NCBI GenBank assembly: GCA_963756875.1
Contig: CAVWPA010000003.1
Location: 192,001-256,000, forward strand
DNA: 64,000 nt
Direction: 5' to 3'
Origin: an uncultured Verrucomicrobiae bacterium
Lineage (GTDB): Bacteria; Verrucomicrobiota; Verrucomicrobiia; Chthoniobacterales; UBA10450
Under the pieces are notes generated by a model that was not told where the DNA came from, searched no databases, and was given only the letters and a program-made list of their open reading frames with translations. The translations under genes were made by a program, and so were the position numbers. Below are positions 1-62,270 of the stretch, one piece after another (position 1 is the stretch's first letter; each line of letters opens with the position of its first letter).

Positions 1-2345
1 GTCGACAACGGAACCGTCTCCGCCCCGCGCCGCGGGATAAACGCGTTCACGAAAATCATCATCTGCGAAATCGCCGTATTGAATGAAAGAGACTCGATGT
101 CTTCGGTCACTTTCTTGATGGTCGCATGCGCGATTTTTTGCTGCGCATCTGTTGGAACGACATCCTGGACCGTGGATGATAATTCCCAGTCGCCGGCTTG
201 ATTTTCACTCATCAGCAAACGCCACACGCGCGCCAGAAAGCGCGAAACGCCTTCCACGCCGCGCATGCTCCACGGCTTCATCTGCTCCAGCGGCCCCATA
301 AACATTTCGTAGCAGCGAAACGCGTCGGCGCCGTATCGTTCGATCACGTCGTCGGGGCTCACGATGTTGCCGCGCGACTTCGACATTTTCTGATTGTCTT
401 CGCCAAGAATGATTCCCTGATTGACCAGCCGCTGAAACGGCTCCGGTTTCGACAAGTAGCCAAGATCGAAGAGCACCTTGTGCCAGAAACGCGCGTAAAG
501 CAGATGCAGGACGGCGTGCTCCGTACCGCCAACATAAAGATCGACACCGCCAGGAGCACGCCGAAATGACGAACTTCCTGATTCGGGCTTCGTCATTCGT
601 GCTTCGTCATTGTCTGCGCCCATCCAGTAGCGCTCAGCCTGTTCGCCGACGAAACGCTCCTCGTTATGCGGATCGCAGAAACGCAGGTAATACCAGCACG
701 AGCCCGCCCACTGCGGCATCACATTGGTCTCGCGCATCGCCTTTTCAGAATAGCGGACCCACTCTTTCGCCTTGGCCAGCGGCGGCTCGCCGGTGCCGGT
801 CGGTTTGTAATCTTCGAGCGGCGGGGGAACCACCGGGAGCTCAGACTCATCGAGCGCCCGATGACGGTGATTCTGCCCGTCCGGCTCGGACTCCCAGACA
901 ATCGGAAACGGTTCGCCCCAATAGCGCTGCCGGGAGAAAAGCCAGTCGCGCAGCTTGTAATTGATCGCGCCCTTGCCGAGACCGCGCTCTTCCAGCCATG
1001 CCGTGATCTTGCGGATGGCCTCCCGCGACGGCAGTCCGTCGATCACCGGCGAATTGATCGCGATGCCGTTGCCGACGAAACCGATGGGCTCCTCGCCGCC
1101 TAACGGCTGGACAACCTGGCGGACCGGCAAATCAAACCTGCGCGCGAATTCAAGGTCGCGCTCATCGTGCGCAGGCACGCCCATGATCGCGCCAGTGCCG
1201 TAACCGAGCAGGACGTAGTCCGCGATCCAGATCTGAATCTTCTCACCGTTAGCCGGGTTGATTGCATGAGCGCCGGTGAAGACGCCGGTTTTTTCCTTCG
1301 CCAGTTCGGTCCGTTCCAAATCGCTCTTGCGTGCGGCCTTTTCTCGATATTCGCGTACTGCCGGCCATTGCTCTTCGGTGACGATCAGATCGACGAGCGA
1401 GTGCTCGGGTGCGAGCACCATGTAGGTCGCACCGTAAAGCGTGTCCGGGCGCGTCGTGAAAACGCGAATGGTAGGGACATCGCGCTGCGATGTCCGGTCG
1501 TCGCAGCGCGACGACCCTACCTGTTCGGCGATCCCGGCCACGGCAAAATCGACTTCCGCGCCTTCGCTGCGGCCGATCCAATTGCGTTGGAGCAACCTAA
1601 TTCCTTCCGGCCAATCGAGTCCCTCCAGTTCGTCGAGCAATCGTTCGGCGTACGCCGTGATGCGCAGCATCCATTGCCGCATCGGCCGTCTTACGACAGG
1701 AAAGCCGCCAACTTCGCTTTTGCCATCGACCACTTCCTCGTTCGCCAAAACGGTGCCGAGTTCCTGGCACCAGTTCACCGGGACATCGGCGACGTAAGCG
1801 AGCCGGACCCTGTCCGGGTTATCTCCGCGATAAGTTGAAATCGGCTCGGCTTTGTTTGTCTTCGGATTGAACCAGGAATTATAAATCCGCAGAAAAATCC
1901 ACTGCGTCCATTTGTAGTAACGCGGGTCGGTCGTGTTGATTTCACGCTGCCAATCGTAGGAAAATCCGATGCGCTTGAGCTGTGATTTGAATTTCGCAAC
2001 GTTTTCACGCGTGGTGACAGCGGGATGCTGGCCGCTCCGGATGGCATATTGCTCCGCCGGCAAACCAAACGCGTCCCAGCCCATCGGATGCAGAACGTTA
2101 AAGCCGCGCAGCCGCTTGTAGCGCGCGATGATGTCTGTTGCAGTGTAGCCTTCCGGATGCCCCACGTGCAGGCCGGCCCCGCTCGGGTAGGGAAACATGT
2201 CCAGGATATAGGATTTCGGCTTCGCGGGATCGAAATTTTTTTCTCCCGGATTGGAAGCGCGAAAAATCTGCCCCTTGTCCCAGATCGCCTGCCATTTCGG
2301 CTCGATCCGGTCAAAAGGATAAGGTTTGCGACGCTCCGAACTCAT
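1..2345 (-). CDS. leuS: Leucine--tRNA ligase (3' end runs off the window; absent from the ORF track)
   Basis: Manual translation from ATG at 2345: [83 protein letters not shown]. Confidence 0.97.
1470..1521. repeat. GTAG-type double-hairpin REP-like element, in-frame inside leuS
   Basis: GGTAGGGACATCGCGCTGCGATGTCCGGTCGTCGCAGCGCGACGACCCTACC; same architecture at 17618-17669 and 57020-57071. Confidence 0.9.
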
Positions 2346-4989: not shown

Positions 4990-6027
4990 TTAAATTGAAG
5001 CGCCTTTCCCAGAGGCTGGTGCTTTTGCGATCTCCATCTCGCGCGCTGCGGTTTGTCCTCCCAGCATCACCTCCAGGTTTGTCGCCGCTGTCTGTAATTC
5101 GAACTCTAAGTTAGACACCCGGGAAGTGAAAAAGTTAAATGGGATCAACGCGAAAATCGCAATGCCGAGACCGCACGCGGTAGCAATTAACGCCTCGGCA
5201 ATACCACCGGTGACCGCTGTCACGGCCAACTCTTCATTACCGAGGAAGCTGAAGGACCGAATCAAACCGGTGATCGTTCCCAACAAGCCGAGCAGAGGGG
5301 CCAGTGTGACCAGCGTGTCCATGACCACAAGAAAACGTCCCGCGCGCTTGATCTCGATACCTGCCGCGACCTGGAGCGCCCCTTGCAGTGAAGCGTGCTG
5401 GTGATTGAGGCCATTCCACATCATACGCAACACCGGATCTCGCGAATCCCTCGAGAGCCGTGAAGCTTCCGCCACATCGCCCATTTCAACCGCGGTGAAG
5501 ACTTTTTCGATCCGCTTCGGATCACGCCGAAACCAGCGCCCACCCCACCAGAAGATTCGTTCGATCACGACCGTCAGCGCGACGATCGATACAATCAGGA
5601 TGGGCCACATGATTGGGCCGCCCTTGTGAAACTTGTCGATAAGCCAGTTGCTACTGAAGACTCCGCCCGTTTCAGCAGGCGCTGCGGTCGGACTTGCGCT
5701 CGCCGCCGGGCTCAAGGTCGCGGTTACGCTGGCGCCAGGAGCGGTCGCACCTGGCGACATTCCCGGAACTGCGGGTGACATGCCGGCGGCTTCAGGCGAC
5801 ATCCCCGGAGCCGCGGGTGACATGCCGGCGGCAGGTGACATCCCCGGAGCTGCGGGTGACATGCCGGCGGCGGGTGATGCGACGGGCGCGCCTGGTTGCG
5901 CTGGCGCACCCGGTTGCGCCTGAGCGGCCGGCGCATTTGCAGACGGAGGTGGCGGCGCAGCCGGAGGCTGTTGCGCGACCGCAGTCGCCACGATCAAAGA
6001 GACACAGAGAGTAAGCAATGTTTTCAT
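4990..6027 (-). CDS. exbB: MotA/TolQ/ExbB proton channel with N-terminal signal peptide and low-complexity repeat extension
   Basis: GGPIMWPIL, APLLGLLGTITGLI, GIAEALIATACGL; start chosen at MKTLLTL (6027). Confidence 0.92.
   Translation of the reverse strand: MKTLLTLCVSLIVATAVAQQPPAAPPPPSANAPAAQAQPGAPAQPGAPVASPAAGMSPAAPGMSPAAGMSPAAPGMSPEAAGMSPAVPGMSPGATAPGASVTATLSPAASASPTAAPAETGGVFSSNWLIDKFHKGGPIMWPILIVSIVALTVVIERIFWWGGRWFRRDPKRIEKVFTAVEMGDVAEASRLSRDSRDPVLRMMWNGLNHQHASLQGALQVAAGIEIKRAGRFLVVMDTLVTLAPLLGLLGTITGLIRSFSFLGNEELAVTAVTGGIAEALIATACGLGIAIFALIPFNFFTSRVSNLEFELQTAATNLEVMLGGQTAAREMEIAKAPASGKGASI
5750..5880. repeat. Coding tandem repeat (about 18-21 bp units) encoding (GMSPAA[P]) x7 in ExbB
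   Basis: Repeated GGTGACATGCCGGCGGC / GACATCCCCGGAGC units. Confidence 0.85.
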
Positions 6028-6240
6028 ATTAACGACTTGGATTATTTTACCTGCTCGGTAGTGAGATTCCTTATCCCAAATCAATTAGCGAGAAGTCGAG
6101 GAAACTTTTCACTTTTTTTTATAATACTTCATTTGCATGTAAATTCGAATTATTCACCCGGAATGGACGTAGGCAAGACGATGTAATTGGTCGGGCCACA
6201 CAAATCCCCAAGACGGCCGCGCATCGTTATCCGCGCGGCT

Positions 6241-7022: not shown

Positions 7023-7110
7023 CCCGCGAATCACGCGAATCAACACCAATAGCAAAGCCAATTTGTGATGGCTGAAATTTTATTCGCGTCCATTCGTGTG
7101 ATTCGCGGGC
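7023..7110. repeat. Intergenic inverted repeat (CGCGAATCACGCGAAT family)
   Basis: CCCGCGAATCACGCGAAT ... ATTCGTGTGATTCGCGGG; related half copies near 27402-27428 and 50700-50726. Confidence 0.7.
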
Positions 7111-10306: not shown

Positions 10307-11442
10307 TGCGGGAAGGGGCGGGCCCATTTCGACGGGCTAAAAGTTTGTCGGTCTGCTGGCGGGACGGTCGACTTCTTTTTCATAATTACGCCGCGCAATC
10401 GACCATTTCTGCCAGGCCCGTCACCTGCGAAGTTCTGAATTTCTTCAGCCACTGGCGCACTGTCAGAGCAGCTGTCACCCATTTTTCTGCTTACTCGAAG
10501 CAAAGCGTGGTGGCCGCTCTCGCCGACTTACTAAAGCGGGGGCTTCTCGTTGCGAAAGGTTCCCCGGAGGCGGCGCGCGACTCTTTGGTTGCAAGGGAGT
10601 GGTCCTCTTGGTTGCCCGAAGGGAGTTTTCATTTCTCGACGAAGGACGCGCCCTATGTGCGTGGCGATCGGAGCAACGCTCGTTTGGCGCCTTTTCTTTT
10701 GAAGACGCCGCAGCCTGCACATTTTAAGGTGATCAGCGAGGCGAGGAGAGTTGCGCTTCCACCGCGTATTTTTCCGGACTGCGAATTCATTCGAGTTCTG
10801 ATGGCGAGACGGACCCATCGACGGTTCTCATCCAAACCGCTTACCCTTGAAAGCGTATCTCAACTGCTCTCACTGGTTTGGGGCTTCACCGGTTATCTGC
10901 ACTCTCCTCTCTTTGGAAAGTTACCGGCCAAGACCAGCCCGTCGGGTGGCGCGCGGCATCCCGGGGAGGTGTACCTGATGGCCCTGCGTGTCCAAGGCCT
11001 GAGACCCGGTCTGTATCATTATCACCCCGCTCACCATCGCCTTGAGAGGATCCATTCCCACGCGACGCGTGGCGAAGCGTCACGCTACTGCGCGTACCAG
11101 GACTACGTAAAAAACGCCGGTGCTCTGTTCTTAATGACGGCCGTGTTTGGACGCACCATGTGGAAATACAGGCATGCTCGCGCCTACCGCGTCGTGTTGC
11201 TCGAAGCTGGCCACCTATGCCAGACATTTTGTCTGGCCGCGACTTGGCTGGGGCTCGCGCCGTTCTGCACCGCCGCGCTCAAGGACACGTTGATCGAGAA
11301 AGATCTCGGAATCGACGGAGTCCGCGAATCGATACTTTACGTAGCTGGCGTTGGCCTGCCCTCTACTTCGGAGCGAGTGAAGCGACAATTTTCTCGAACC
11401 GGGGATCACCGCGCAATGAATCCCAATAGGGGTGAAGCTTGA
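10306..11442 (+). CDS. SagB/ThcOx-family FMN-dependent dehydrogenase (nitroreductase fold) with N-terminal RRE-like winged-helix domain
   Basis: RRTHRRFS, TSPSGGARHP, GLYHY, WKY (Lys-Tyr motif), EAGHLCQTFCLAATWLGL; N-terminal beta-hairpins plus helices ending ALADLLKRGLL. Confidence 0.9.
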   Translation: MREGAGPFRRAKSLSVCWRDGRLLFHNYAAQSTISARPVTCEVLNFFSHWRTVRAAVTHFSAYSKQSVVAALADLLKRGLLVAKGSPEAARDSLVAREWSSWLPEGSFHFSTKDAPYVRGDRSNARLAPFLLKTPQPAHFKVISEARRVALPPRIFPDCEFIRVLMARRTHRRFSSKPLTLESVSQLLSLVWGFTGYLHSPLFGKLPAKTSPSGGARHPGEVYLMALRVQGLRPGLYHYHPAHHRLERIHSHATRGEASRYCAYQDYVKNAGALFLMTAVFGRTMWKYRHARAYRVVLLEAGHLCQTFCLAATWLGLAPFCTAALKDTLIEKDLGIDGVRESILYVAGVGLPSTSERVKRQFSRTGDHRAMNPNRGEA

Positions 11443-16182: not shown

Positions 16183-17616
16183 ATGAGTACGACAACGACC
16201 GACTCGAAAACGAAACAAGATTTTAAAGTTCGCGACATCAATCTTGCGGACTTTGGACGAAAGGAAATTTCCATCGCGGAAAAGGAGATGCCCGGCCTGA
16301 TGGCCATCCGGGAGAAGTATGCACCGGAGAAACCGTTCGCCGGTGTCCGCATCACCGGTTCGCTCCACATGACGATCCAGACCGCCGTGTTGATCGAAAC
16401 ACTGGTCGATCTCGGCGCAAGCGTGCGCTGGGCCAGTTGCAACATTTTCTCGACCCAGGATCACGCCGCGGCGGCGATCGCGAAATCAGGCGTACCGGTT
16501 TTCGCGTGGAAAGGCGAATCGCTCGAAGAATATTGGTGGTGCACTTACCGGGCACTCTCGCATGCGGACGGCAAAGGACCGCAACTCATCGTCGATGACG
16601 GTGGCGACGCGACATTGCTCATCCACAAAGGGTACGAGATCGAAGAAGGCAGCGATTGGGCGAAAACGAAATCGGCGAACAGGGAAGAACAGGTCATCAA
16701 GGACCTGTTGCTCGAAATTCAGCGCGAAAATCCGTATCGCTGGCACGAAATCGTGAAGGGGTGGCGCGGTGTTTCCGAAGAAACAACCACCGGCGTGCAT
16801 CGTCTTTATAAGATGCACCTGGAAAACAAGCTGCTGGTTCCGGCGATCAATGTGAACGACTCGGTCACGAAGTCGAAGTTCGACAATCTTTACGGCTGCC
16901 GGCATTCGCTGGTCGATGGATTGAACCGCGCGCTCGACGTCATGATTGCCGGCAAGATCGCGGTGGTGTGCGGCTACGGCGACGTCGGCAAAGGTTGCGC
17001 GCAATCGCTGCGCGGCCAGGGGGCGCGCGTGGTCATTACCGAGATCGATCCGATCAACGCATTGCAAGCGGCGATGGAAGGCTACGAAGTCACGACCATT
17101 GAGGAAACACTCGGCCGAGGGGACATTTACATCAGCGCCACCGGCAACACCGACGTGATCACGTTCGATCACATGCAGCGGATGAAAGATCAGGCCATCG
17201 TTGCCAACATTGGCCACTTCGACAACGAGATCCAGGTGGATGCGCTCAGTTCCGCCAAGGGCGTAAAGCGCACCAACATCAAACCGCAGGTGGACAAGTA
17301 CACATTCCCGGATGGCCACGATATTTTTCTGCTCGCGGAAGGGCGTCTGGTAAATCTCGGCTGCGCCACCGGCCATCCGAGCTTCGTCATGTCGAACTCA
17401 TTTTCCAATCAGGTGCTCGCCCAGCTCGATCTTTGGAAGAATCGGGAGACGTACAAGCCCGGCGTTTACGTCCTTTCGAAGAAACTCGACGAAGAAGTTG
17501 CGCGCCTGCATCTGGGAAAAATCGGGGTCAAACTGAGCAAGCTCTCGCAAAAGCAGGCCGATTATCTCGGCGTGCCGGTCGAAGGCCCGTTCAAGTCGGA
17601 GCATTACCGCTATTAA
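16183..17616 (+). CDS. ahcY: Adenosylhomocysteinase
   Basis: [49 protein letters not shown]. Confidence 0.98.
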
Positions 17617-17816
17617 TGGTAGGGACGGCGCGCTGCGCCGTCCGGACATCGCGGCGGGATGTCCCTACCAAATAATAAGACGCGACTCCGAAAGCGTTCG
17701 CGAGCAGACGGAGCGCGTCCCTCCAACGCAATCCCCTTACAAATCGGCAGGCGATGCGCCCGCCCTACAATCTGTTCGCGTTCAGTTGAACGTTGGACGT
17801 TGAACGTCGAACGTTT
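17617..17816. repeat. Mosaic intergenic repeat cluster (GTAG double hairpin, GGAG-type arm, CCCTAC arm, heptamer tandem)
   Basis: 17618-17669 matches the leuS-internal element; 17679-17725 matches 23725-23772; GTTGAAC-like heptamer x4 at 17785-17812. Confidence 0.85.
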
Positions 17817-19181: not shown

Positions 19182-19883
19182 ATGCCCGATTCCATCGAGC
19201 GATGTCTCGAAACAGCCCTGGCTGATTCGCTGCGGTTCGGTCAAATCCAAATACGGAAAGCGAACGGCTCGTTCGTTCTTTGTCATCGCGGCGATGAAGG
19301 CCGCAGCGATTTGCAGATTTTTCGAACTCCGGAAGACGCCGTTGAAATTGCGCGCTACGACGATGAAGGAAATTACCGTCCATTAAAGACCGCGCCGAAT
19401 CTGCGGCATGGCTGGCGATTGGAGATTGTCGATTCGGCCGCTCTACGCCGCGCACTGGACTACTTTTATCCCGGCAGACTGGCCATGTTTGCGGCCTGGC
19501 AGGAAAATCGTCTGCCCGTAACGCCGCTTCGCCAGACTTTGGATCGGCAATCCGGGATGTACCGCGTCGCCGCCAGCATTTCTGACAAGCAAATCGACGA
19601 CGTCGTCGAAACATTCTGCCGGTCGAACGGCGGCTGTCTGCGCACGATCCTGTGGAGACGCGACGAACAGGGCACCATGGCATCGACGAAGTTGCCGCCG
19701 GAGAAATTCGACCCGGCGTTCGATCAAACCAAAGCCCTGCATGGACCGCGGGCAGCAACTCCGAAAGCCTTCGCGGGCGAGGCCGCGGCTACAGCGATCC
19801 CGCTGCTTTGCCAGGAAGCGTGCAATTTGCTCGTGGCGGAATGTCGCAAAGTGGTGAAGGGCGAAACCTCGTCCAGCCTGTAG
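19182..19883 (+). CDS. DR2241-like protein with four-Cys motif (putative Fe-S)
   Basis: YRPLKTAPNLRHGW, RQSGMYR, C..GGCLRTILW, CQEACN. Confidence 0.75.
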   Translation: MPDSIERCLETALADSLRFGQIQIRKANGSFVLCHRGDEGRSDLQIFRTPEDAVEIARYDDEGNYRPLKTAPNLRHGWRLEIVDSAALRRALDYFYPGRLAMFAAWQENRLPVTPLRQTLDRQSGMYRVAASISDKQIDDVVETFCRSNGGCLRTILWRRDEQGTMASTKLPPEKFDPAFDQTKALHGPRAATPKAFAGEAAATAIPLLCQEACNLLVAECRKVVKGETSSSL

Positions 19884-19981
19884 CGGCGCTCTGCCCGTCC
19901 GGCCGTAGCCATCGCGAAGGCGGATGAGCGTCGCATTCTTTGGTCCCAACAATTTGCGACGGTCATAGACCGCCGCTACAG
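19878..19981. repeat. GTAG-type REPIN-like element with nested insert
   Basis: Terminal IR CTGTAGCGGCG/CGCCGCTACAG; second copy at 31382-31552. Confidence 0.85.
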
Positions 19982-19988
19982 CAGGAAA

Positions 19989-21224
19989 ATGATTGTTCGC
20001 GCGCGCGTTGTGGTCACGATGGATGGGCCGCCGATTAAAAATGGCGCGGTGGCGATCTCGGGGAATCGAATTGTCAATGTTGGAACGTTCCCGGAAATCA
20101 AAGCGCGGCATTCCGGGGAAGAGATTCTCGATCTGGGCGAGCAGATGCTGCTGCCGGGATTGATCAACGCGCACTGTCATCTCGATTACACCTGTTTGCG
20201 CGGCAGGATCCCATTGCCAAAATCGTTCGCCGATTGGGTACGCGCCATCAATTCAGAGAAGGCGGGGCTTTCGGGAGAAGACTACGTCGCCTCGATCAAC
20301 GCAGGCTTTGCCGAGGCGAAACGCTTTGGAAGCACGACGGTGGCAAACCTGACGGCGTTTCCGGAACTGGCAGCAAAAGTTCGCGCGCCGATCCGGACCT
20401 GGTGGTTCGCAGAATTGATCGATGTGCGGAATCCCGAACGCCCAAATGAGATCGTCGATCTTGCACTCGAGTCTTTAAAAATCGCCGAGCGCCGGGGACT
20501 TGCGCCGCATGCGCTGTTCACCGCTTCGTCAAATCTGTTTCGGCGCTGCGAAGAAGTTGCCCGCGAGAAAAATGTTTTGCTGACCACGCACCTCGCGGAA
20601 TCACGCGAAGAGATGTCTATGTTTCGCGATGCAGCGGGACCGCTTTACGAATTCCTGAAGGGAATCGGGCGGGATATGAGCGACTGTGGTCATGGAACCC
20701 CACTCAAAGAATTCGTCGGACGCCTTCGCCACGGCGAATCTTTGATCGGAGAGACGTCCCTACCTGGTAATTGGATTGTCGCGCATCTAAACGAGCTTGC
20801 GGAAAGCGATTTCGATTTGCTGGCACGATCTTCGGCCAAATTTCACATCGTGCATTGCCCTCGCAGCCATGAATATTTCGGTCATTCCCGGTTTCAGTTC
20901 GAAGGATTGCGGCAGCTTGGATTCAACATTTGTCTGGGGACCGACAGCCTCGCGAGTAACGACGACCTGAGTTTGTTCGCCGAGATGCGCGCGTTCCAAC
21001 AAGCGTTTCCAGGCGTTTCACCCGAAGAGATTTTCAAAATGGTCACGGCAAACTCCGCGTATGCGCTGGGACAAGAAAATACGCTGGGCAAAATTCGCCC
21101 CGGATTTTGTGCCGACTTGATCGCGATCCCGTGCGCGGGAGCAGCCGCGCCGAATCACGTTTTTGAGGAAATCCTGGCATTCGACCGGCCCGTCGACTGG
21201 ATGCTCGCCGACGGGCACGAATGA
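19989..21224 (+). CDS. Metal-dependent amidohydrolase (deaminase-like)
   Basis: PGLINAHCH, APHALF, HLAES, LGTDS. Confidence 0.9.
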   Translation: MIVRARVVVTMDGPPIKNGAVAISGNRIVNVGTFPEIKARHSGEEILDLGEQMLLPGLINAHCHLDYTCLRGRIPLPKSFADWVRAINSEKAGLSGEDYVASINAGFAEAKRFGSTTVANLTAFPELAAKVRAPIRTWWFAELIDVRNPERPNEIVDLALESLKIAERRGLAPHALFTASSNLFRRCEEVAREKNVLLTTHLAESREEMSMFRDAAGPLYEFLKGIGRDMSDCGHGTPLKEFVGRLRHGESLIGETSLPGNWIVAHLNELAESDFDLLARSSAKFHIVHCPRSHEYFGHSRFQFEGLRQLGFNICLGTDSLASNDDLSLFAEMRAFQQAFPGVSPEEIFKMVTANSAYALGQENTLGKIRPGFCADLIAIPCAGAAAPNHVFEEILAFDRPVDWMLADGHE

Positions 21225-23656: not shown

Positions 23657-23772
23657 TGGAGGGACGACCTCCGCCTGCCGAGCCGTAGCCTTGGCGAAGG
23701 CTGGTGTCGTCCCAAGAATTAATGGGACGCGACTCCGAAAGCGTTCGCGAGCGGGCGGCGCGCATCCCTCCA
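23657..23772. repeat. GGAG-type palindromic element carrying two nested inserts
   Basis: TGGAGGG...CCCTCCA termini; insert-free relative at 37693-37752. Confidence 0.85.
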
Positions 23773-23782
23773 ATAAAATCTT

Positions 23783-38497: not shown

Positions 38498-39518
38498 AAT
38501 TCGTTTCCTTGCCGCGCTCCTTCTCCTAACCGGCACTACGGCGTTTGGAGAAATCTCTTCGGCCGATTGCGCGCGCGCCGCAAAATATTCGGAAAAGGAG
38601 CGCGGCATCTCGATGCTCGCCATGCAAAACGGTCGCACCGTTTTCGAGCATTACGCGAATGGCGGCGCGGCTAATGGCCGGTGGCCGATCTTCAGCGGCA
38701 CGAAGAGCTTTTGGGGAATTGCCGCTCTCTGCGCGGTCAAAGAAGGTCTGTTCAGGTTTGATGATCGCGTGGCCGACACGATCATCGAGTGGAGAAACGA
38801 TCCGCTCCGATCGCAGATCACAATTCGCGAGCTTCTGCATTTCACCGACGGGATCGAAGCCGCATCGCACTTGCAGAGCTCGTCGGTCCGCGACCGCAAT
38901 GGCATGGCAATCCGGCTGCGAATCGTAGCCAGACCCGGCTCGGCTTTTATTTACGGCCCGAGCCATCTCCAGATTTTTTTGGAATTGCTCCGGCGAAAAT
39001 TACATGACCGCACAACGACTTCGTATCTTGAAGAGCATGTCCTCAACCCGCTTGGATTATATAATCTCAACTATAAAAAGGACTCTCGCGGTCATCCGCT
39101 TGCCGCCAGCGGTTTCGAACTGACCGCGCGCGAGTGGGCCCGCTTCGGCGAAATGGTCCTCGGTCACGGAAGCTACAATGGCCACCAGGTGGTCTCCGCA
39201 GGTTTACTCCGCGAGGCGTTTGTCGGGTCGCCGGCAAATCCATCTTACGGAATGACATTCTGGCTAAATCGCGAGGCAGGCACCTTCGCCCATGAAGCGA
39301 ACATCGAAAAAATGCTCGACTTGCCATGGAAACGCGCGAACTGGAGAAACATTTGCATTGGCCGAAGCGCGCCTGCCGACATGGTGGTCGCTCTGGGCTC
39401 CGATTATCAGCGTCTTTTTATTATTCCATCGATGAACGCCCTGATTGTGCGCCAGGGATCGAATGCGAAATTCTCCGACGCACATTTCCTGCGGCTCGCC
39501 CTGGAGCACAGCCGGTAG
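38427..39518 (+). CDS. Secreted serine hydrolase (beta-lactamase class C-like fold)
   Basis: SxxK motif FSGTKS, ITIRELL, FIYGP, AREWARFG; start uncertain. Confidence 0.85.
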   Translation: MFTINQKVVSARRRNQRARRVRYPIRFLAALLLLTGTTAFGEISSADCARAAKYSEKERGISMLAMQNGRTVFEHYANGGAANGRWPIFSGTKSFWGIAALCAVKEGLFRFDDRVADTIIEWRNDPLRSQITIRELLHFTDGIEAASHLQSSSVRDRNGMAIRLRIVARPGSAFIYGPSHLQIFLELLRRKLHDRTTTSYLEEHVLNPLGLYNLNYKKDSRGHPLAASGFELTAREWARFGEMVLGHGSYNGHQVVSAGLLREAFVGSPANPSYGMTFWLNREAGTFAHEANIEKMLDLPWKRANWRNICIGRSAPADMVVALGSDYQRLFIIPSMNALIVRQGSNAKFSDAHFLRLALEHSR

Positions 39519-44554: not shown

Positions 44555-44678
44555 AGCACCAAGCACCAAACCCAAACCCCAGGGAAACTTCAAGCTTCAA
44601 GCGCCCGGAGGCTCGTGCTTATTTGGTCATTGATGCTTGGAGCTTCCCTGGGATTTGGTGCTTGGAACTTGGAGCTTA
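44554..44678. repeat. TCCAAG/CTTGGA heptamer-arm inverted repeat
   Basis: AAGCACCAAGCACCAAA..CCAGGGAA ... TTCCCTGGGATTTGGTGCTTGGAACTTGGAGCTT. Confidence 0.8.
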
Positions 44679-44717: not shown

Positions 44718-45935
44718 GTGTCATTTAATAATTTCGATCTTTCGCCGGAAGTCGTGCGCGGAACTCAGGCGATGGGGTTCATCGAACCGACCCCCATTCA
44801 ATTACGGGCGTTCCCAATCATTCTAGAAGGGAAGGATTTAATCGGCACGGCGCAGACCGGTACCGGCAAGACCGCGGCGTTCGCGCTACCCATTCTCACA
44901 TTGCTGTCGCGTCACGGAAAATTTCGCTGTCTTGTTCTTGAACCTACTCGCGAGCTGGCGGCGCAAGTGGAAACCGCGTTTCGCGATTACGGGCGTTTCA
45001 CGGATTTGCGAGTGACGGTCGTGCATGGCGGTGTCGGTTACGGGAAACAGCGCGAAGATCTCAAAAATGGCGTCGACATTGTTGCCGCGACACCAGGCCG
45101 GCTTCTCGATCATCTTCAGCAGCGCACGCTTCATTTTCGAGACGTAAATATTCTCGTGCTCGATGAAGTCGATCGGATGCTGGACATGGGATTTTTGCCG
45201 GACGTGCGCCGCATCGTCGAACAAATCTCGACGGACCGGCAAACGCTCCTTTTCTCCGCAACGTTGCCGCCGGAAATCGAACGGCTCGCCGCCTGGGTCC
45301 TGCGCGATCCGGTCACGGTCGAGATCGGGGTGCGGCGTTCCCCGGCAGACACCGTTACCCACGCGGTTTACCCGGTGGCGGCAGAACAAAAGTTCGATCT
45401 CCTGATTGCTTTACTGGAGCGGACAAACTTCGACAGCGTCCTGATTTTTTGCCGCACCAAACAAAATGCCGATCGTGTCGCGCACTCTCTAAAAAACGCG
45501 AAACATTCCGTCGCGGTGCTCCATTCGAACCGCACGCAGCGCGAGCGCATCGAGGCACTCGAAGGGTTCAAGTCCGGAAAATACGAAGTGATGGTCGCAA
45601 CGGACATCGCATCGCGCGGGCTCGATATCGCCGGCGTGAGTCACGTCATCAACTATGACGTCCCGGAACATCCGGAGGATTATGTGCATCGTATCGGCCG
45701 TACAGGTCGAGCCCAGAATGTGGGCGACGCTTTTACCCTCATGAACGGGGAGGAAGTCGCGGCGTTGCAGGCAATCGAACATTTTATCGGCCAGAAAATC
45801 CCCCGCCTTAAACTCGAAAATTTTCCGTATCTTTACACGGTCCTCTTCGAACCGGAATCCGCGACCGGAGGCAGACGCGCAATTGGCGGCGGCCGCTCGC
45901 ATCGCGGCTATTCCTACGGCCGAAGACGCAGGTAG
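44718..45935 (+). CDS. DEAD-box RNA helicase (RhlE-like)
   Basis: PTPIQ, AQTGTGKT, PTRELA, TPGR, DEVD, SAT, HRIGRTGR. Confidence 0.95.
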   Translation: MSFNNFDLSPEVVRGTQAMGFIEPTPIQLRAFPIILEGKDLIGTAQTGTGKTAAFALPILTLLSRHGKFRCLVLEPTRELAAQVETAFRDYGRFTDLRVTVVHGGVGYGKQREDLKNGVDIVAATPGRLLDHLQQRTLHFRDVNILVLDEVDRMLDMGFLPDVRRIVEQISTDRQTLLFSATLPPEIERLAAWVLRDPVTVEIGVRRSPADTVTHAVYPVAAEQKFDLLIALLERTNFDSVLIFCRTKQNADRVAHSLKNAKHSVAVLHSNRTQRERIEALEGFKSGKYEVMVATDIASRGLDIAGVSHVINYDVPEHPEDYVHRIGRTGRAQNVGDAFTLMNGEEVAALQAIEHFIGQKIPRLKLENFPYLYTVLFEPESATGGRRAIGGGRSHRGYSYGRRRR

Positions 45936-46001
45936 GGACGTTTCTCCGAAACGTCCGACGAATTGCGGGTGGATGGGCTTCGCCGAAGACGATCCACCGC
46001 C
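45931..46001. repeat. GTAGGGAC-type element (insert-free) supplying the helicase stop codon
   Basis: GGTAGGGACGTTTCTCCGAAACGTCCGACGAA; second hairpin GGTGGAT..ATCCACC. Confidence 0.75.
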
Positions 46002-51320: not shown

Positions 51321-54300
51321 ATGCCGCGGAATAACCAGCTCAAGAAAATCCTGCTGATCGGGTCCGGTCCAATCGTGATCGGGCAGGGCTGTGAATTTGA
51401 TTATTCCGGTGTGCAGGCTTGCAAGGCATTGAGGGAAGAGGGTTACCAGGTCGTGCTGGTGAACTCGAATCCGGCCACGATCATGACCGACCCCGAGTTC
51501 GCCGATCGCACGTATATCGAGCCGATCACGGCAGAAGTGATCGAAGCGATCGTCCAGCGTGAAAAACCGGATGCGATTTTACCGACGATGGGCGGGCAAA
51601 CCGCCCTCAACGCCGCAATGGAACTTTACCGCAACGGCGCGCTCGTCCGGCACGGCGTGAAATTAATCGGAGCCAATGCGCAGGCGATTGCGAAGGGCGA
51701 AGACCGGCAGCTGTTCAAGGAAGCGATGTTGCGCATCGGCCTGGATGTCCCGCGCTCAGGCGTGGCGCGTTCGCTCGCGGATGCAGCCCGGATCGCCACG
51801 GAGATCGGCACTTTTCCGCTCATCATTCGCCCCGCATTTAGCCTTGGCGGGATGGGCGGCGGAATCGCATACAACGGCGACGAACTGGACGACATCACCG
51901 CGCGCGGTCTTGATGTGTCCCCGGTCACCGAAGTTTTGATCGAAGAGTCGCTGGTCGGCTGGAAGGAATTCGAGATGGAAGTGATGCGCGACCATATGGA
52001 CAACTGTGTGGTCGTTTGTTCCATCGAAAACTTCGATCCGATGGGCGTTCACACCGGCGACTCGATCACTGTGGCGCCGGTGCAGACGCTCACCGACAAG
52101 GAATACCAAATGATGCGCGACGCCTCATTCGCGGTCATCCGCGAGATCGGCGTGGAAACGGGCGGCTCAAACATCCAGTTTGCCATTCACCCGGACAATG
52201 GCCGCATGATGATAATCGAAATGAATCCCCGCGTGTCGCGTTCCAGCGCGCTCGCCTCCAAGGCGACCGGCTTTCCGATTGCAAAGATCGCAGCCAAACT
52301 CGCAGTCGGGTACACGCTCGACGAAATCAAAAACGATATCACGCGCGAAACACCGGCATGTTTCGAACCGACGATCGATTACTGCGTGGTGAAAGTGCCG
52401 CGGTTCACGTTTGAAAAATTTCCGCAGGCCGATCCCACGTTGACGACGCAAATGAAAAGCGTCGGTGAAGCGATGGCCATCGGTCGCACATTCAAGGAGG
52501 CGTTGCAAAAAGCCTTGCGCAGTCTGGAAATCAAACGCTTCGGCTTGTGCGGTGACGGGGCTGACAAACCTGCTCTCGATCCCGAGTCGTTGCGGTTGAA
52601 GCTTTCAATTCCAAATGCGGAGCGAATTTTTTACCTGGCACAGGCATTCCAAAATGGAATGTCCATTGACGAGGTTTTTGAACTCACAAAAATCGACAGG
52701 TGGTTTTTGCGAAATGTGGCTGAGATCGTAACGGAAGCGACCGCGCTGCGCAGTACAACGGGTAAAACACCGGCGGAGCGTCTGCTGCGCTCCAAGAAGC
52801 TGGGTTTCTCGGATCGGCAACTTGCGATCGCGAACGGCTCGTCGGAAGAGAAAATACGGGCGGCTCGGATTGCGGAAGGAATCACGCCAACTTACCGGCT
52901 CGTGGATACTTGCGCGGCCGAATTCGAAGCTTACACGCCCTACTATTACTCGACGTATGGCGATGAGAACGAGCGGCGCGAGAGCGGCAAACGCAAAGTG
53001 ATGATCCTCGGCGGCGGACCCAACCGCATCGGCCAGGGCATCGAATTCGATTATTGCTGCGTGCACGCGGCCTTCGCGCTGCGCGAGCTCGGGTTCGAAA
53101 CGATCATGGTCAACTCGAATCCGGAAACCGTTTCCACCGATTACGACACCAGCGACAAACTTTATTTCGAGCCTCTTACGCTCGAAGACGTGCTGAACAT
53201 TTACGATCAGGAAAAGCCCGAAGGCGTGATGGTTCAGTTCGGCGGTCAAACGCCGCTCAATCTCGCGAATGGCCTGAAAGCAGCCAAAGTCCCCATCCTC
53301 GGCACGCAGCCGGAGAGCATCGAGACTGCTGAAGACCGAAAACTCTTTGCCGCGATGCTCGACAAGCTCGGGTTGCGACAGACGCCCAGCGGTTCCGCCG
53401 TTACCGAAGACGACGCGGTCGCAATCGCGGAGCGAATTGGCTATCCCGTGCTCGTCAGGCCGAGCTTTGTTCTCGGGGGCCGCGCCATGGAGCTCGTTTA
53501 TAACGAACAGGATTTGCGCCGTTACATGACAAGCGCAATCGAGGCAAGCCCGGAACGGCCAATCCTGGTGGACCGCTTTCTTGAAGACGCCATCGAGGTG
53601 GACGTCGATTGCATTTCCGACGGCGAGACAACGGTGCTCGGCGCGATCATGGAACATATCGAAGAAGCTGGCATTCATAGCGGAGACAGCGCCTGCGTAA
53701 TTCCAACGTTTTCGCTGCCGAAAAAGGTTCTCGATGAGATCGCGTCGGCAACGAAGGCGATGGCGCGCGAATTGAACGTGCGCGGCCTCATGAATGTGCA
53801 ATTCGCGGTCAAAGGCGAAGTCGTCTACGTGCTGGAGGTGAATCCTCGCGCGTCGCGGACGGTGCCATTTGTCAGCAAGGCGATCGGCGTGCCCCTGGCG
53901 AAACTGGCTGCAAAAGTGATGACCGGAAAAACTTTGCGCGAACTCGGGTTCACAAAAGAAGTCGTGCCCGCGCACTTCTCCGTCAAAGAGGCGGTCTTCC
54001 CTTTCCTGCGTTACCAGGGAACGGATATTTCACTGGGCCCGGAAATGAAATCGACCGGCGAAGTAATGGGCATGGACGTCGATCTGGGCCTGGCCTACGC
54101 GAAATCGCAGATGGCTGCGCCGCCGCCGCTGCCGAAACGCGGAAACGTCTTCATCAGCGTGAAAAACACCGACAAGGAAGCCGTGATCCCGGTCGCCCGG
54201 GAATTTGTGAAGCTTGGATTTGGAGTTTTTTCGACCAGCGGCACGGCGGCCGCCCTGGCGAAGGCAAAAATCAAGGTGAAAAAAGTCTTCAAGCTCCATG

Positions 54301-56998: not shown

Positions 56999-57019
56999 CG
57001 ATATCGCGCATCGGCCGTG

Positions 57020-57071
57020 GGCAGGGACGCCGCGCTGCGGCGTCCGGTCGGCGCAGCGCGCCGACCCTACC
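57020..57071. repeat. GTAG-type double-hairpin element between convergent genes
   Basis: GGCAGGGACGCCGCGCTGCGGCGTCCGGTCGGCGCAGCGCGCCGACCCTACC. Confidence 0.9.
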
Positions 57072-57885
57072 AATTTGACCTGGCAGAGCGTTTCTGCGCG
57101 ATCCGGCGCCTCGCTTCTGCGAGATAGGTTTCGTCAATTTCGAAGCCTATGAACTTTTTGACGCCGCGTCTCTGCGCGGCGAGGGCGGAGTTCCCGATCC
57201 CCAAAAACGGATCGAGCATTGTTTGAACACGCGAGACGCCGTGCAGTTTGATGCACCATTCGGCAAGTTGCACCGGAAAAGTGGCAGGATGCGGACGTTC
57301 TTTCGCGCGGCTCTGGATCGTTTCGTACGGAATGAACCAGGTGTTCCCGCGGCAGCGAAGGTCGCTTCCGCGCGTATGCCGCCAGCGCGCGATGTTGCTC
57401 TTGTCCTGATACGGAACACCAAGCGCAAGCCGGTCGATCTCAACGCGCCCGGTCTTTGTGAAATGGAAAATGTATTCGTGACAATCGTTCAGGAAGCGCT
57501 TCGAGCTGATCGGCTTGAAGTGGCCACACGAGCGAATCTCGCCTTCGCGATCCTCGATGGTGATCGACTTGATCCAGTGAATCGTGTTCTGCAGAACAAA
57601 GTGGTCGCGCAATTCGATCGCGATTTCGTGCGGCAGCATCGGATTGGATGGCGCAGCGCCAACATTGAGAAAAAACGAACCCGTGGACTTCAGGAGCCGG
57701 GATATTTGCGCTCCCCATTCCCCGCACCAAATCAAATACGATCGTCGATCCTGCCGGTCCGAATATTTTCGGTAGCGAATACCGAGATTGTAAGGCGGGG
57801 ATGTGACAACAAGATCGACATGCTCACCGGGCAGCCTTGCCATTCCCTTTACGCAATCTTCCAGACAAAGCTCGAATCGGGTCAT
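57067..57885 (-). CDS. Orphan N4/N6 DNA methyltransferase (beta class)
   Basis: TSPPYN precedes HPATFP and DPFLGIG; start at MTRFEL. Confidence 0.92.
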   Translation of the reverse strand: MTRFELCLEDCVKGMARLPGEHVDLVVTSPPYNLGIRYRKYSDRQDRRSYLIWCGEWGAQISRLLKSTGSFFLNVGAAPSNPMLPHEIAIELRDHFVLQNTIHWIKSITIEDREGEIRSCGHFKPISSKRFLNDCHEYIFHFTKTGRVEIDRLALGVPYQDKSNIARWRHTRGSDLRCRGNTWFIPYETIQSRAKERPHPATFPVQLAEWCIKLHGVSRVQTMLDPFLGIGNSALAAQRRGVKKFIGFEIDETYLAEARRRIAQKRSARSNW

Positions 57886-58037
57886 GCGAGTAATCTGAAT
57901 CGCCGCCAGCAATTCGTACAGCGAAAAAATCGCAATGCGCGTGTTCTGTTTCCGAGGAGCACGGGCTGCTAGCCTGTGCTCCCCGGACGGGCACGAAATT
58001 CGCACGCTTGGGCAAATTCGTTTATTGTTTTTCGCAC

Positions 58038-59605: not shown

Positions 59606-60418
59606 ATGCGCGAGCTGCTCCTTTGCCCGCCGGACCATTACGGCATCGAATACGAGATCAATCCCTGGATGAGCCGGGCCCGCGGAGCGGATGCGCCTGT
59701 CGCGCAACAGCAATGGAAGAATCTCCGTGCCACGTTGTCGAAGCTGGATTGCAACATTCACCTGGTGAAGCCGCAGCCGAAGCTGCCCGACATGGTCTTC
59801 ACCGCTAATGCCGGGCTCGCCGTCGGCAGGAAATTCATTCCAAGCAATTTTCGTCACAAAGAACGCGCCGGCGAGGCGCCGCACTTTGCGCGATGGATGG
59901 AAGAACACGGATACCGAATCGCGTGGCTGCCCAAGGACCTGTACTTTGAAGGCGAAGGCGACGCGCTTTTTAGCGGCGACATGCTTTTCTGCGGCTACAA
60001 ATTCCGATCGGATATCCAATCGCACCGGGCCATCGCGGACATGCTCGCTTGCCTGGTCATCTCCGTCGAGCTGGTCGATCCGCGCTTTTACCATCTCGAT
60101 ACCTGCTTCTGTCCGTTGCCCGATGGCGGGGCTGTCTGGTTCCCGGCTGCGTTCGACGAATACGGGCAACGCGCCATTCGCGAGCACGTGCGCGAGTTAA
60201 TCGACGTCGTGCCTGAAGAAGCGATGCATTTTTCCTGCAATGCGGTCGTGCTTAAGCACGATGTCGTTTTACCTGAAGGCGCGCCGAAGCTGGTCGGGGC
60301 CCTTCAGAAACGAGGATACACGTGTCATCAGTTGCCGATGACGGAGTTCATCAAGGCGGGCGGCGCCTGCAAATGTCTCACCATGTTCATGCCGCAACGG
60401 GACGGCGCAAAGGAGTAG
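59606..60418 (+). CDS. Amidinotransferase/pentein enzyme, arginine dihydrolase (ArgZ N-domain)-like
   Basis: YEINPWM, DMVFTANAG, FEGEGD, YHLDTCF, GGACKCL. Confidence 0.88.
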   Translation: MRELLLCPPDHYGIEYEINPWMSRARGADAPVAQQQWKNLRATLSKLDCNIHLVKPQPKLPDMVFTANAGLAVGRKFIPSNFRHKERAGEAPHFARWMEEHGYRIAWLPKDLYFEGEGDALFSGDMLFCGYKFRSDIQSHRAIADMLACLVISVELVDPRFYHLDTCFCPLPDGGAVWFPAAFDEYGQRAIREHVRELIDVVPEEAMHFSCNAVVLKHDVVLPEGAPKLVGALQKRGYTCHQLPMTEFIKAGGACKCLTMFMPQRDGAKE

Positions 60419-60472
60419 TGGAGTAATGGGGATTCGTTTTCCCTTCCTCCACTGCTCCAATACTCCATTACT
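60412..60472. repeat. GGAGTAAT/ATTACTCC element between convergent genes
   Basis: GGAGTAGTGGAGTAATGG..CCACTGCTCCAATACTCCATTACT; contains both flanking stop codons. Confidence 0.75.
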
Positions 60473-62270
60473 TCCGCTCGCGTTTGCGCTTCAACTCGAT
60501 CTCGATTTTTGTGAGCGGAAGACAATTCACCACGTCGGCTTTCGTAAGCCAGCCTTTGCGCGCAATGCCGATGCCAAACCAAAGGTCCTGCAGACGCTCG
60601 GTTCGGTGCGCGTCCGGGTTGATCACGCATTTGACTCCTTTCTTCTTCGCCAGCGGCCACCAGCGCCAGTCGAGATCGAGGCGCTTGGGCGCGGCGTTCA
60701 GCTCAATCCACGTTCCATTCGCCGCCGCCGCGTCCAGGACGGCAGGAATATCGACAACATAAGGCTCGCGCTGCAGAAGAAGTCGCCCCGTCGGGTGCGC
60801 GAGAATGGTAACGAAACGATTGCTAATCGCGCGGATCACGCGGCGCGTCATTTCCGCTTCGCTCAAATTAAAAACCGAATGGATCGAGGCGACAACGAAA
60901 TCCAGTTCGGATAAGAGATCATCCGAAAAGTCGAGGGTGCCGTCGCGGAGGATATCGCATTCCACACCGGCAAAAAGCCGGAAGCCGTCGAATTTTTTGT
61001 TCAATTTTCGAATCGCCGCAATTTGTGCGCGGAGTTTCTTTTCATCGAGCCCGTGCGCCTGAACGGAGCTGCGGCTGTGCTCCGCGATCCCCAGATATTC
61101 CAGGCCGAGCGCCTGCGCTGCATCGGCCATTTCCTCCAGCGTATTATGGCCGTCGCTCGCGACCGTATGACAATGAAATGTGCCGCGTAAATTTTCCTTT
61201 TCGATCAAGTGCGGCAACACATGTTTTTCCGAAGCCTCGAATTCGCCGCAATTTTCACGCAGCTCCGGCGGGATAAAATCGAGATCGAGCGCGTGATAAA
61301 GGCCGGCTTCATCGTTAATTTTCTCGTTCTTCTGCGGCGATCGTTTAACCGTCTGTCCAGTCGAAGACTCGCCGTGGCGAGCTCGGACCTTTTTTGCTTT
61401 GGGATCCGGCGGCAACGGCCCGAGCCGATACTCGTTCAACGTCCAGCCGCGTTTAAGCGCCCGGTTACGCATCTCGATATTATGCTCCCTGTTGCCTGTA
61501 AAATAATTCAACGCGAAAGGATATTCGCTCGAGCTTACCACTCGCAGGTCGCATTGGATCCCGGAACGCAGCCGCACACTCGATTTCGTCGGTCCGTGTG
61601 CAACGATCGACTCAACCAGCGGGTGCTCGACGAAAAATTTCGTGATTACGTCCGGCTTTTTTGTCGCCACCACAAAATCGATATCGTGCACGATCTCCCG
61701 GCGTCGCCGGTAACTCCCTGCGACATCGACATGCAAGGCGTCACGATGCGCCGTCAGATCCGCGCGCAGCGACTCCGCTTCGGCTGCGATCCGGCCGAAT
61801 TGAAAATAGCCGGCATGCTTTGTCCGCTGCTCAATGGCGGCGCAAATTTTTGCCTGTGTCGTTTCGCCAAAGCCAGGCAACTGCGCGACTCGCCCGGACT
61901 CACACGCTTTTCGCAGCTGTTCAATTGAGCTGATCTGCAGGTTCTCGTACAGCGCCTTGATCTTTTTCGCGCCAAGACCCGAGATCGAGAATAACTCCAG
62001 AATCGCCGCCGGGAAGTTGGCCCGGAGTTCTTCCAGATATTTCAATGATCCCGTGGCGGCCAGCTCTTTGATTTTCTCCGCGATGCTTTTGCCGATTCCC
62101 GGAATTTTCGCCAGCGCCTGTTCGTCCTGCAGATCGGGCAGGTTACCGCCCCAGGTTTCGAGGGAGCGCGCGGCATTGGCATAAGCCCGGATCTTGAATG
62201 GATTCTCCTCCTTCAATTCGAGAAGAGTGGCGATCTCTTCCAGGACTTCGACGATCTGGGTCTTTGTCAT
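60468..62270 (-). CDS. polX: DNA polymerase X / PHP 3'-5' exonuclease
   Basis: ENPFKIRAY, AGSYRR..DID, YFTG, PHP HCHT..SDG, HPTGR, NPDAH. Confidence 0.94.
   Translation of the reverse strand: MTKTQIVEVLEEIATLLELKEENPFKIRAYANAARSLETWGGNLPDLQDEQALAKIPGIGKSIAEKIKELAATGSLKYLEELRANFPAAILELFSISGLGAKKIKALYENLQISSIEQLRKACESGRVAQLPGFGETTQAKICAAIEQRTKHAGYFQFGRIAAEAESLRADLTAHRDALHVDVAGSYRRRREIVHDIDFVVATKKPDVITKFFVEHPLVESIVAHGPTKSSVRLRSGIQCDLRVVSSSEYPFALNYFTGNREHNIEMRNRALKRGWTLNEYRLGPLPPDPKAKKVRARHGESSTGQTVKRSPQKNEKINDEAGLYHALDLDFIPPELRENCGEFEASEKHVLPHLIEKENLRGTFHCHTVASDGHNTLEEMADAAQALGLEYLGIAEHSRSSVQAHGLDEKKLRAQIAAIRKLNKKFDGFRLFAGVECDILRDGTLDFSDDLLSELDFVVASIHSVFNLSEAEMTRRVIRAISNRFVTILAHPTGRLLLQREPYVVDIPAVLDAAAANGTWIELNAAPKRLDLDWRWWPLAKKKGVKCVINPDAHRTERLQDLWFGIGIARKGWLTKADVVNCLPLTKIEIELKRKRERK

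Follow-up and report, generated by a model that had tools for sequence, protein, structure and literature searches.

A GTAG-headed REP doublet lying in frame within leuS of a Chthoniobacterales bacterium, at a loop repeatedly occupied by palindromic elements

The leuS palindrome and its repeat family

The DNA analysed here is a 64-kb stretch of contig CAVWPA010000003.1 (assembly GCA_963756875.1), referred to below as the window, from a soil verrucomicrobium of the Chthoniobacterales/'Candidatus Udaeobacter' type, as judged from the names carried by its nearest database proteins and by related loci. At its start the window holds most of leuS, the gene for leucyl-tRNA synthetase (LeuRS), and within this gene lies the subject of the present analysis, a 52-nt palindrome made of two inverted repetitive extragenic palindromic (REP) hairpins, each headed by GTAG, an arrangement typical of the paired REP units known as REPINs. 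A first-pass annotation, prepared from the letters alone, had described this palindrome as a double hairpin that leaves the leuS frame unbroken, and the minus-strand open reading frame (ORF) bears this out. The features of leuS discussed below are the following, all on the minus strand of the window unless a head on the other strand is indicated:

3..2345, minus strand: leuS (leucyl-tRNA synthetase) coding sequence, first 781 codons, from ORF and translation; the C-terminus lies beyond the window's start
1440..1457, minus strand: TTRPDT, the threonine-rich editing-site motif of connective polypeptide 1 (CP1), aa 297-302, starting five residues past the insert
1470..1521, minus strand: REPIN-like element, a 52-nt GTAG...CTAC double hairpin consisting of two inverted GTAG-headed REP hairpins and a GGTAG/CTACC outer stem
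1471-1495: first REP half of the element, head on the plus strand
1496-1520: second REP half of the element, head on the minus strand
1470..1520, minus strand: the 17 inserted codons (51 nt), aa 276-292, a gap in relatives and in solved LeuRS
1521..1544, minus strand: relic of an older GTAGCCGGG-type REP, aa 268-275, AVAGIAEQ, with its head mutated to GTGG and the REPIN nested within it
558..611, minus strand: second in-frame palindromic insert, aa 579-596 (NDEARMTK...SSFRR), composed of ATGACGAA/TTCGTCAT units of a family different from the first and forming a hairpin in the fold

The gene that carries the element has the appearance of an intact LeuRS gene. The window ORF is identical at 100% to the corresponding part of database protein P0002, a full-length LeuRS of 888 aa on which the tRNA-synthetase Pfam domains are recognised, and it matches Thermus thermophilus LeuRS (1h3n) with E = 6.6e-195. 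The catalytic and editing motifs HVGH, KMSKS, TTRPDT and AHDERD are all kept, and the frame is open throughout the 781 codons, palindrome included. The TTRPDT of the window aligns to T247-T252 of 1h3n (residue numbers counted from the alignment), T252 being a residue whose role in LeuRS has been described (PMC3664829). The inserted peptide and its flanks are also as first annotated, with 17 residues (aa 276-292) standing ahead of TTRPDT.

Read on the coding strand, the element opens with a GGTAG outer arm and closes with a CTACC outer arm, and between the two stand a pair of perfect hairpins, foot to foot, with 9-bp stems and 3-nt loops. Both halves have the same make-up, a GTAGGG head followed by the perfect 9-bp stem and the 3-nt loop, so oriented that the heads face outward and the hairpin feet meet without a spacer. 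Although the palindrome is 52 nt long it adds a whole number of codons, because base 52 (position 1521) completes, as its third base, the codon of Gln275 and therefore belongs to the preceding residue. Two of the three frames on each strand of the element are open, the third being shut by the TAG of the GTAG head, and leuS reads the element in its hydrophilic frame.

A repeat search of the window places three copies in one family (1467-1521, 17615-17669 and 57017-57071), the two copies outside leuS each being 82% identical to the leuS copy and all three ranking among the window's longest inverted repeats. Copies of the same architecture had first been placed at 17618 and 57020; the family relationship and the latter position hold, while the former is one base off and should read 17619. 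Together with a single hairpin related to them, the further members in the window are:

17619..17670, strand not assigned: intergenic REPIN copy of the same family, 2 nt past the stop codon of an S-adenosylhomocysteine hydrolase gene (16183-17616)
57020..57071, strand not assigned: REPIN copy of the same family, whose head TAG (57067-57069) is the stop of a DNA methylase gene (57067-58005, minus strand)
45932..45956, plus strand: single GTAGGGAC-headed REP hairpin, whose TAG (45933-45935) is the stop of a DEAD-box helicase gene (44718-45935)

The 64-kb window thus holds three doublets and one singlet of the GTAGGGAC type, two of which abut or supply stop codons, and among the six heads of the three doublets one reads GCAG.

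Folding statistics single the element out within its gene. As RNA it folds at -45.2 kcal/mol (z = -6.6), a value matched by 0 of 200 shuffles, and as DNA at -24 kcal/mol (z = -7.3), and the most stable 72-nt stretch of the whole leuS mRNA coincides with it (-45.4, where 379 such stretches average -21.3 with an sd of 5.7). The form that is conserved among copies was examined in a covariation alignment of nine rows, representing only five elements, of which four were read on both strands and one, from locus L036, on one strand (numbers with the prefix L denote loci from related metagenome-assembled genomes, MAGs). The double hairpin with its outer stem pairs in 97.1% of the cells of this alignment and has six pairs changed on both sides, which 0 of 500 shuffles reach, and controls in which the structure was slid along the alignment give 30-51% pairing. 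The single long hairpin preferred by minimum-free-energy folding was rejected as the conserved form, being paired in 83.3% of cells with no compensatory change, a result reached by 500 of 500 shuffles. The compensatory changes therefore favour two REP hairpins, which makes the individual REP hairpin the conserved unit and the term double hairpin an apt one.

A covariance model was built from the same nine rows, among them the window's own copies, which consequently match it by construction; it gives the leuS copy 82 bits (E about 1e-14), level with the best intergenic copies. Beyond the window it finds copies at E < 1e-8 in L037, L036, L008 and L014, and it finds weaker ones elsewhere in L008 (1.3e-5) and in L004 (3.9e-4). 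These further copies, distributed over four or five related genomes, are intergenic, and the leuS loop in those genomes is short and uninserted.

The leuS palindrome is a member of a GTAG-type REP family and not a product of chance. As expected of such REPs, it has GTAG at the stem foot, is repeated mostly between genes near their 3' ends and has compensated stems; as expected of a REPIN, the inverted REP pair forms one unit and sites with and without it occur among close relatives. The first-pass assignment to the GTAG-type REPs thus stands, on the strength of the GTAG head, 9-bp stem and 3-nt loop of each half and of the intergenic copies in the window and in relatives. A miniature inverted-repeat transposable element was considered and rejected, the element being only 52 nt long, with no direct repeat at the ends of the three copies and with flanks that differ. 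No Rfam family matches at gathering score anywhere in the window, and two microRNA-precursor matches below threshold, with 23.5 and 17.7 bits where 79 and 86 are required, are explained by the element being a hairpin.

Empty, filled and nested states of the loop

The site was compared across 76 loci from related MAGs, 65 of which matched a regular expression for the segment NWIGRS...FTTRPDT, giving 66 sequences with the window included. The segment is 29 aa long in 2 sequences, 30 in 2, 31 in 43, 32 in 4 and longer than 32 in 15. With 48 aa the window exceeds the 31 aa found in 43 of the 66 by 17 residues, which is the gap of about 17 residues that the first-pass annotation had predicted for an alignment of orthologues. 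Non-palindromic loops of the window's own length, named there as the observation that would speak against an insertion, are not what most of the relatives have: 51 of the 66 segments measure 29-32 aa, and the DNA of these is not palindromic, z <= -2 being reached by only one of the 51 (L026). Of the 11 loci missed by the expression, L030, L003, L001, L047 and L061 have a short loop with minor sequence differences, L053 exceeds the base form by about 4 aa, a long insert is present in L054, L015 and L034 end before the site, and L055 and L009 have the irregular forms described below.

Solved structures give the same picture. The LeuRS of T. thermophilus is gapped exactly at the insert, with about four residues between the strand end at G238 and I243 (alignment numbering), the length of the loop varies among solved LeuRS (T. 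thermophilus, a 5ah5 chain and a 6q89 chain), and for isolated editing-domain constructs the alignment begins directly after the insert. As judged from these alignments, the insert appears to occupy the turn of a hairpin loop of variable length that borders the CP1 editing domain on its N-terminal side. Related peptides are found at the site in independent datasets, namely in P0003 (...SRRDVPT) and in L031 (VASSRCVPT), where a window-family copy with an internal deletion is present.

The loop into which the REPIN was inserted was already occupied. The residues AVAGIAEQ ahead of the insert differ from the base loop (KIDxxDxK), and the nearest relatives, P0004 and P0005, read AVAGVxDPGY(K/N) at this position. 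By hand count, the first 16 nt of the relic are identical at 14 of 16 positions to the intact GTAGCCGGGATC hairpin in leuS of L019, as against only 8 of 24 positions for the relic and the base-state loop of L037. A peptide of the same type (VAGVADPG...) is listed for the GTAG-17 REPs of Opitutus terrae in the accessible part of a published supplement (PMC3733652, supplement 3). The similarity indicates that the REPIN lies within what is left of an earlier REP, whose right arm it replaced. The first-pass proposal that a REP family is creating a new peptide loop in an essential gene is accordingly supported as regards the REP and the gene but not as regards a pristine loop, an older relic lying beneath, and such nesting also implies that the net gain of 17 aa over the base state is partly a coincidence of lengths.

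The second palindromic insert of leuS, at 558..611, is located directly ahead of the VDLY strand. Between ...YW and VDLY there are 2-12 residues in 59 of 69 sequences and 26-53 in the other ten, the window included; the longer versions occur in 9 of 68 related loci and fold at -36 to -66 kcal/mol, and T. thermophilus LeuRS has a 24-residue gap at this insert. No further copy of the ATGACGAA/TTCGTCAT family was found in the window, and elements of this type are also present at the first loop in P0116 and P0059. A third leuS indel (PDGQNHRH, aa 487-494) was rejected as a palindromic element, its fold of -22 kcal/mol per 66 nt being about the background of the gene.

At the CP1 edge, one and the same loop has been hit repeatedly in Chthoniobacterales by at least four recognisable palindrome families, which have been gained and lost many times. 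In addition to the window family it carries a GTAGCGGCGGTC doublet in L058 and L064 (48 aa; -48 and -46 kcal/mol), in L060, where it is shortened, and in L055; GTAGCC-type hairpins in L019, L063 and L021; and in L050 a segment of 67 aa that folds at -90 kcal/mol. Decayed versions that are no longer palindromic are seen in L021, L048, L052 and L067. A survey of the site in 182 LeuRS proteins, with labels taken from peptide regular expressions and approximate for the 'GTAGCCGGG type' and for 'other', gave the following states:

base: 89 of 182 proteins
GTAGCCGGG type (AVAGVxDPG...DPGYK), the commonest insert: 47 of 182 proteins
...LESCPT type, also 17 aa: 13 of 182 proteins
...DRRY type: 3 of 182 proteins
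the window's type: 2 of 182 proteins
other: 28 of 182 proteins

The loop is therefore in a non-base state in 93 of the 182 proteins. On a FastTree tree of the same proteins, built without gappy columns, at least 23 changes between base and insert are counted, and at least 16 are forced by well-supported branches.

The concentration of events at this loop was also examined in 1.4 Mb of DNA, a sample that is centred on leuS and in which neighbouring genes are represented nearly as often. It contains 45 GTAG hairpins with perfect stems, 14 of them deep within stop-free frames of at least 250 aa, and six of these 14 are at the leuS site; of the remaining eight, several lie in opposite-strand or N-terminal-extension frames. 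Repeated insertion of GTAG hairpins was seen in no neighbouring gene within the 1.4 Mb. A pre-existing GTAG or CTAC was rejected as the target, GTAG being present in only 2 of 51 base-state loops and CTAC in 0 of 51, and the first hit is for this reason better explained by tolerance than by targeting.

Some irregular or additional forms were encountered in the course of the comparison. The leuS gene of L055, a long-read MAG, has a frameshift within its REPIN (10790-10880), which may be an indel error at the hairpin or a real disruption, and L009 (1308-1552) lacks the segment that reaches from the DF strand to TTRPDT, with a change of frame. The window itself has at 19878-19981, between two genes, an inverted pair of the GTAGCGGCG type (CTGTAGCGGCG...CGCCGCTACAG), which belongs to the family of the leuS REPIN in L058, L064, L060 and L055.

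A tolerated passenger loop and the alternatives

Taken together, we consider it probable that leuS has received an insertion of REPIN type, that is a GTAG-headed REP doublet, which is tolerated as a passenger loop. A non-autonomous doublet of the REPIN/BIME type (BIME, bacterial interspersed mosaic element) would have inserted into leuS at the turn of this variable loop bordering CP1, and, by analogy with other bacteria and from the family type only, it may have moved as single-stranded DNA through the action of a REP-associated tyrosine transposase (RAYT, or TnpAREP). The insertion would have survived because it added whole codons (51 nt), used a stop-free frame and fell where the length of the loop is free to vary; with two open frames per strand, an insertion that is a multiple of three would stay open with a chance of about two in three. 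The 17 hydrophilic residues would then most likely be a neutral passenger loop on a working LeuRS, and both the freedom of loop length and the intact motifs point in this direction.

Several points weigh against such an account. No target-site duplication or clean junction is readable at the leuS element, because the element replaced part of the older REP. The two LeuRS with window-type peptides, that of the window and P0003 (...LAGASRRDVPT), are not sisters: a tree built for 25 close relatives places the window beside the pair of P0003 and P0005 (support 96/93 and 100/98), the sister of P0003 is P0005 (support 100/98), which has the intact older hairpin, and a forced grouping of the window with P0003 is rejected by the approximately unbiased (AU) test (p = 0.006). 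One insertion followed by vertical descent is thus insufficient for the pattern, which may reflect two insertions, an insertion and a later replacement, or recombination. No RAYT gene was found in the window (Pfam, 64 ORFs) or among 12 REP-flanked ORFs of related loci, and tblastn of two CarB-embedded RAYT parts against the 1.4 Mb gave no match; no cognate transposase can consequently be named for the window genome, of which the RAYT scans covered 64 kb, or for the REP family. Finally, the surface exposure of the 17 residues is argued from alignments only, their translation is presumed from the open frame, and the activity of the window LeuRS is likewise a presumption.

RAYT domains do exist in Chthoniobacterales, where a great many CarB proteins have one embedded in them. 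In a control search for CarB relatives, two of the 120 matches listed are proteins of about 1335 aa whose oligomerisation domain contains an in-frame RAYT. With the insert as the only query, 1376 protein clusters were obtained at E <= 1e-3 among 3726 candidates of 736-2344 aa; CarB domains are present in all 120 of the matches listed, the HUH-like motif MPNH[VIL]H in 119, Y[IVL]xxNP in 118 and both motifs in 117, with identity down to 51%. All four of these proteins that were compared with NF047646 ('REP-associated tyrosine transposase') resemble it, with E about 1e-18 and 65-68 bits, below the 80-bit cut-off. The embedded RAYT measures about 260 aa (proteins P0219, P0231 and P0242-P0359), and many of the proteins carry the Joint Genome Institute (JGI) name 'carbamoylphosphate synthase large subunit/REP element-mobilizing transposase RayT'. 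The window's own CarB has no RAYT insert, the corresponding site being at about 52740-52790, and a literature search on RAYT within carbamoyl phosphate synthase brought up no relevant report.

The distribution of the window-type peptide invites another explanation, namely that the element arrived by homologous recombination or short-patch gene conversion with a REP-bearing allele of a related strain, and that patchiness reflects the exchange of alleles. This would suit the peptide shared by the window and P0003 with P0005 and its intact older hairpin standing between them (AU p = 0.006), and the flanking leuS sequence, 80-93% identical among these lineages, is similar enough for recombination; nevertheless, the first inserted allele would still need a transposition-like event, identical-family copies being found at unrelated intergenic places, and we hold allele exchange to be an unlikely origin of the element.

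It is also conceivable that the hairpin is kept for a function of the RNA or protein, such as a translational pause at the border of the core and CP1, a site for an RNase or regulator, or a loop modulating editing or the tRNA. The leuS copy is undecayed, with both 9-bp stems perfect and a score of 82 bits like that of the best intergenic copies, it is the strongest local structure of the leuS mRNA, both hot spots lie at the edges of structural units, with the first insert ending five residues ahead of the editing motif, and across the order the loop very commonly holds an insert (93 of 182 proteins non-base). A recent insertion, however, equally predicts an intact hairpin, and the inserts found at this position differ in length, show no sequence relationship to one another and have often been gained and lost, which fits tolerance rather than a conserved function. 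Since about half of the relatives also do without any insert, and decayed non-palindromic versions persist in L021, L048, L052 and L067, we find a retained function quite improbable.

An artefact or a dead gene, that is a misassembled palindrome or a leuS pseudogene with a working copy elsewhere, is hardly credible: although the source is a metagenome-type assembly (P0002 on a single 1.78-Mb contig) and the frame of the related long-read MAG L055 breaks inside the REPIN at the same site, the 781 codons are open with all motifs kept, the protein shares about 91% identity with its nearest relatives, related peptides stand at the same site in independent datasets (P0003, L031), and an exact addition of 17 codons in an open frame is not expected of misassembly.

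Insertion with tolerance as a passenger loop, which we therefore retain as the preferred explanation, may be extended in one direction, towards which we are inclined to be sceptical. The CP1-edge loop and the second loop could be true landing pads for REPs in Chthoniobacterales, the GTAG/CTAC of a relic recruiting the transposase for later REPs of other families; a REP relic could attract such later events through cleavage at GTAG/CTAC by an enzyme of the TnpAREP type. If true, such recruitment would account for the nesting, for state changes numbering at least 16-23 and for the presence of the same family in non-sister lineages, and the site would constitute a natural series of independent integrations with matching empty sites, informative on the still unknown chemistry of REPIN integration. 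Viewed together with the carB-embedded RAYT (more than 1000 clusters), it would further suggest that REP-RAYT systems persist by embedding themselves in essential genes.

Other repeats of the window may be noted briefly. The spacer between the S-adenosylhomocysteine hydrolase and CbiX genes (17616-17793) consists almost wholly of repeats, including, besides the REPIN at 17619-17670, a 64-nt element (families D7/D10) that recurs at 23717-23780 and in part at 19750-19779, and another hairpin, of GTAGGGCGGGC, at 17746-17768 on the minus strand. Four long inverted repeats (7023-7109, 38510-38607, 44572-44658 and 60405-60489) have arms of 20-29 nt that are 72-90% complementary and are unrelated to the GTAG families. 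These four palindromes, and a GTAGGGAC-like word at 20758, were rejected as clean in-frame REPs, as they fall in N-terminal extensions, in unsupported ORFs, between genes or at gene ends, or are weak. A minus-strand ExbB-like gene (4990-6084) has at 5753-5871, ahead of its MotA/ExbB domain, tandem repeats of 21/39 nt that encode an N-terminal stretch rich in Pro, Ala, Met and Ser (…AAPGMSPAAGMSPAAPGMSP…).

Comparison with known repeat systems

Palindromic elements inserted in frame in Rickettsia genes that still appear functional were reportedly described by Ogata and colleagues in 2000. The leuS element resembles these Rickettsia palindromic elements (RPEs) in that in-frame palindromes add peptide segments, a likeness in behaviour only, and it differs from them in lineage and in the families involved. 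The first-pass annotation had cited RPEs as its precedent, correctly so as far as the kind of event is concerned; the closest precedent is a different one, in-frame GTAG REPs being already in print (Di Nocera, De Gregorio, Rocco 2013, BMC Genomics, PMC3733652). That a REP can be read through as protein is, then, already known from 2013 and, for Rickettsia, from 2000.

According to the accessible text and supplements of the 2013 paper (PMC3733652), GTAG/CGTC REPs lie in frame and wholly inside ORFs of many genes, singly or as dimers, and most of the intragenic cases are in the verrucomicrobium O. terrae (70 rows, supplement 3). Intragenic REP dimers or grouped repeats encode 20 to 30 residues there, inverted partners are 1-2 bp apart, double hits within one gene occur, the genes for GlyRS-beta and IleRS are among those affected, and the suggestion of its authors is that intragenic REPs occupy flexible linkers or loops. 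The same source equates the intragenic repeats of R. conorii, which rank first in its CGTC count, with RPE-4 and RPE-6, RPE-1 being longer. It also reports that GTAG heads often supply the TAG stop of a neighbouring gene, as the heads in the window do at 45933-45935 and 57067-57069, and its O. terrae GTAG-17 peptides (VAGVADPG..., ...DPGY) are of the type of the older relic and of the commonest insert at the LeuRS loop. In the supplements as accessible the word 'leucyl' has 0 occurrences, LeuRS not being among the genes listed, and the window-family peptides DVPT and SSRC are absent from supplement 3. A literature search for in-frame palindromes in LeuRS, or for repeats of Udaeobacter, likewise brought up no relevant report.

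The REPIN-RAYT systems (Bertels and Rainey 2011, PMC3116915), as set out in the portion of that paper at hand, offer a second comparison. Like REPINs, the element is an inverted REP pair of about 50 nt, present in several near-identical copies and common to related genomes; unlike them it is not extragenic in leuS, and those systems are defined by a single-copy RAYT flanked by REPINs, of which none is seen in the window. The single long hairpin of REPINs also differs from the situation here, where covariation favours two separate REP hairpins. In Escherichia coli, as far as the consulted sections of Ton-Hoang et al. 2012 (PMC3333891) go, TnpAREP needs GTAG and cleaves between C and T, also inside the CTAC of an inverted REP, and the E. 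coli REP/BIME units share with our element the GTAG 5' of the hairpin foot and the pairing of a REP with an inverted REP. E. coli REP stems are imperfect, with a required mismatch, whereas the stems here are perfect, like those of the 'second group' distinguished in the available text of Corneloup et al. 2021 (PMC8266576).

What sets the LeuRS loop apart from the published cases is the recurrent, nested and multi-family use of one site, which goes beyond what has been published. In the accessible part of the 2013 paper, different REPs at about the same position are reported only once, in recB of two Xanthomonas (PMC3733652), whereas the LeuRS loop has at least four palindrome families, shows one of them nested in another and has been filled and emptied many times. 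In a very abundant, uncultured soil order, one loop of an essential enzyme is thus observed in empty, filled, nested, shortened and decayed states. For annotators and phylogeneticists this carries a warning, the length variation of LeuRS and CarB in this group being mobile-element noise and not evidence of lineage-specific domain evolution. The spread of REPs has been called 'poorly understood' (PMC8266576, in the text available to us), and the many independent events at this loop, together with their clean empty alleles, are material that could show where and how REPs integrate.

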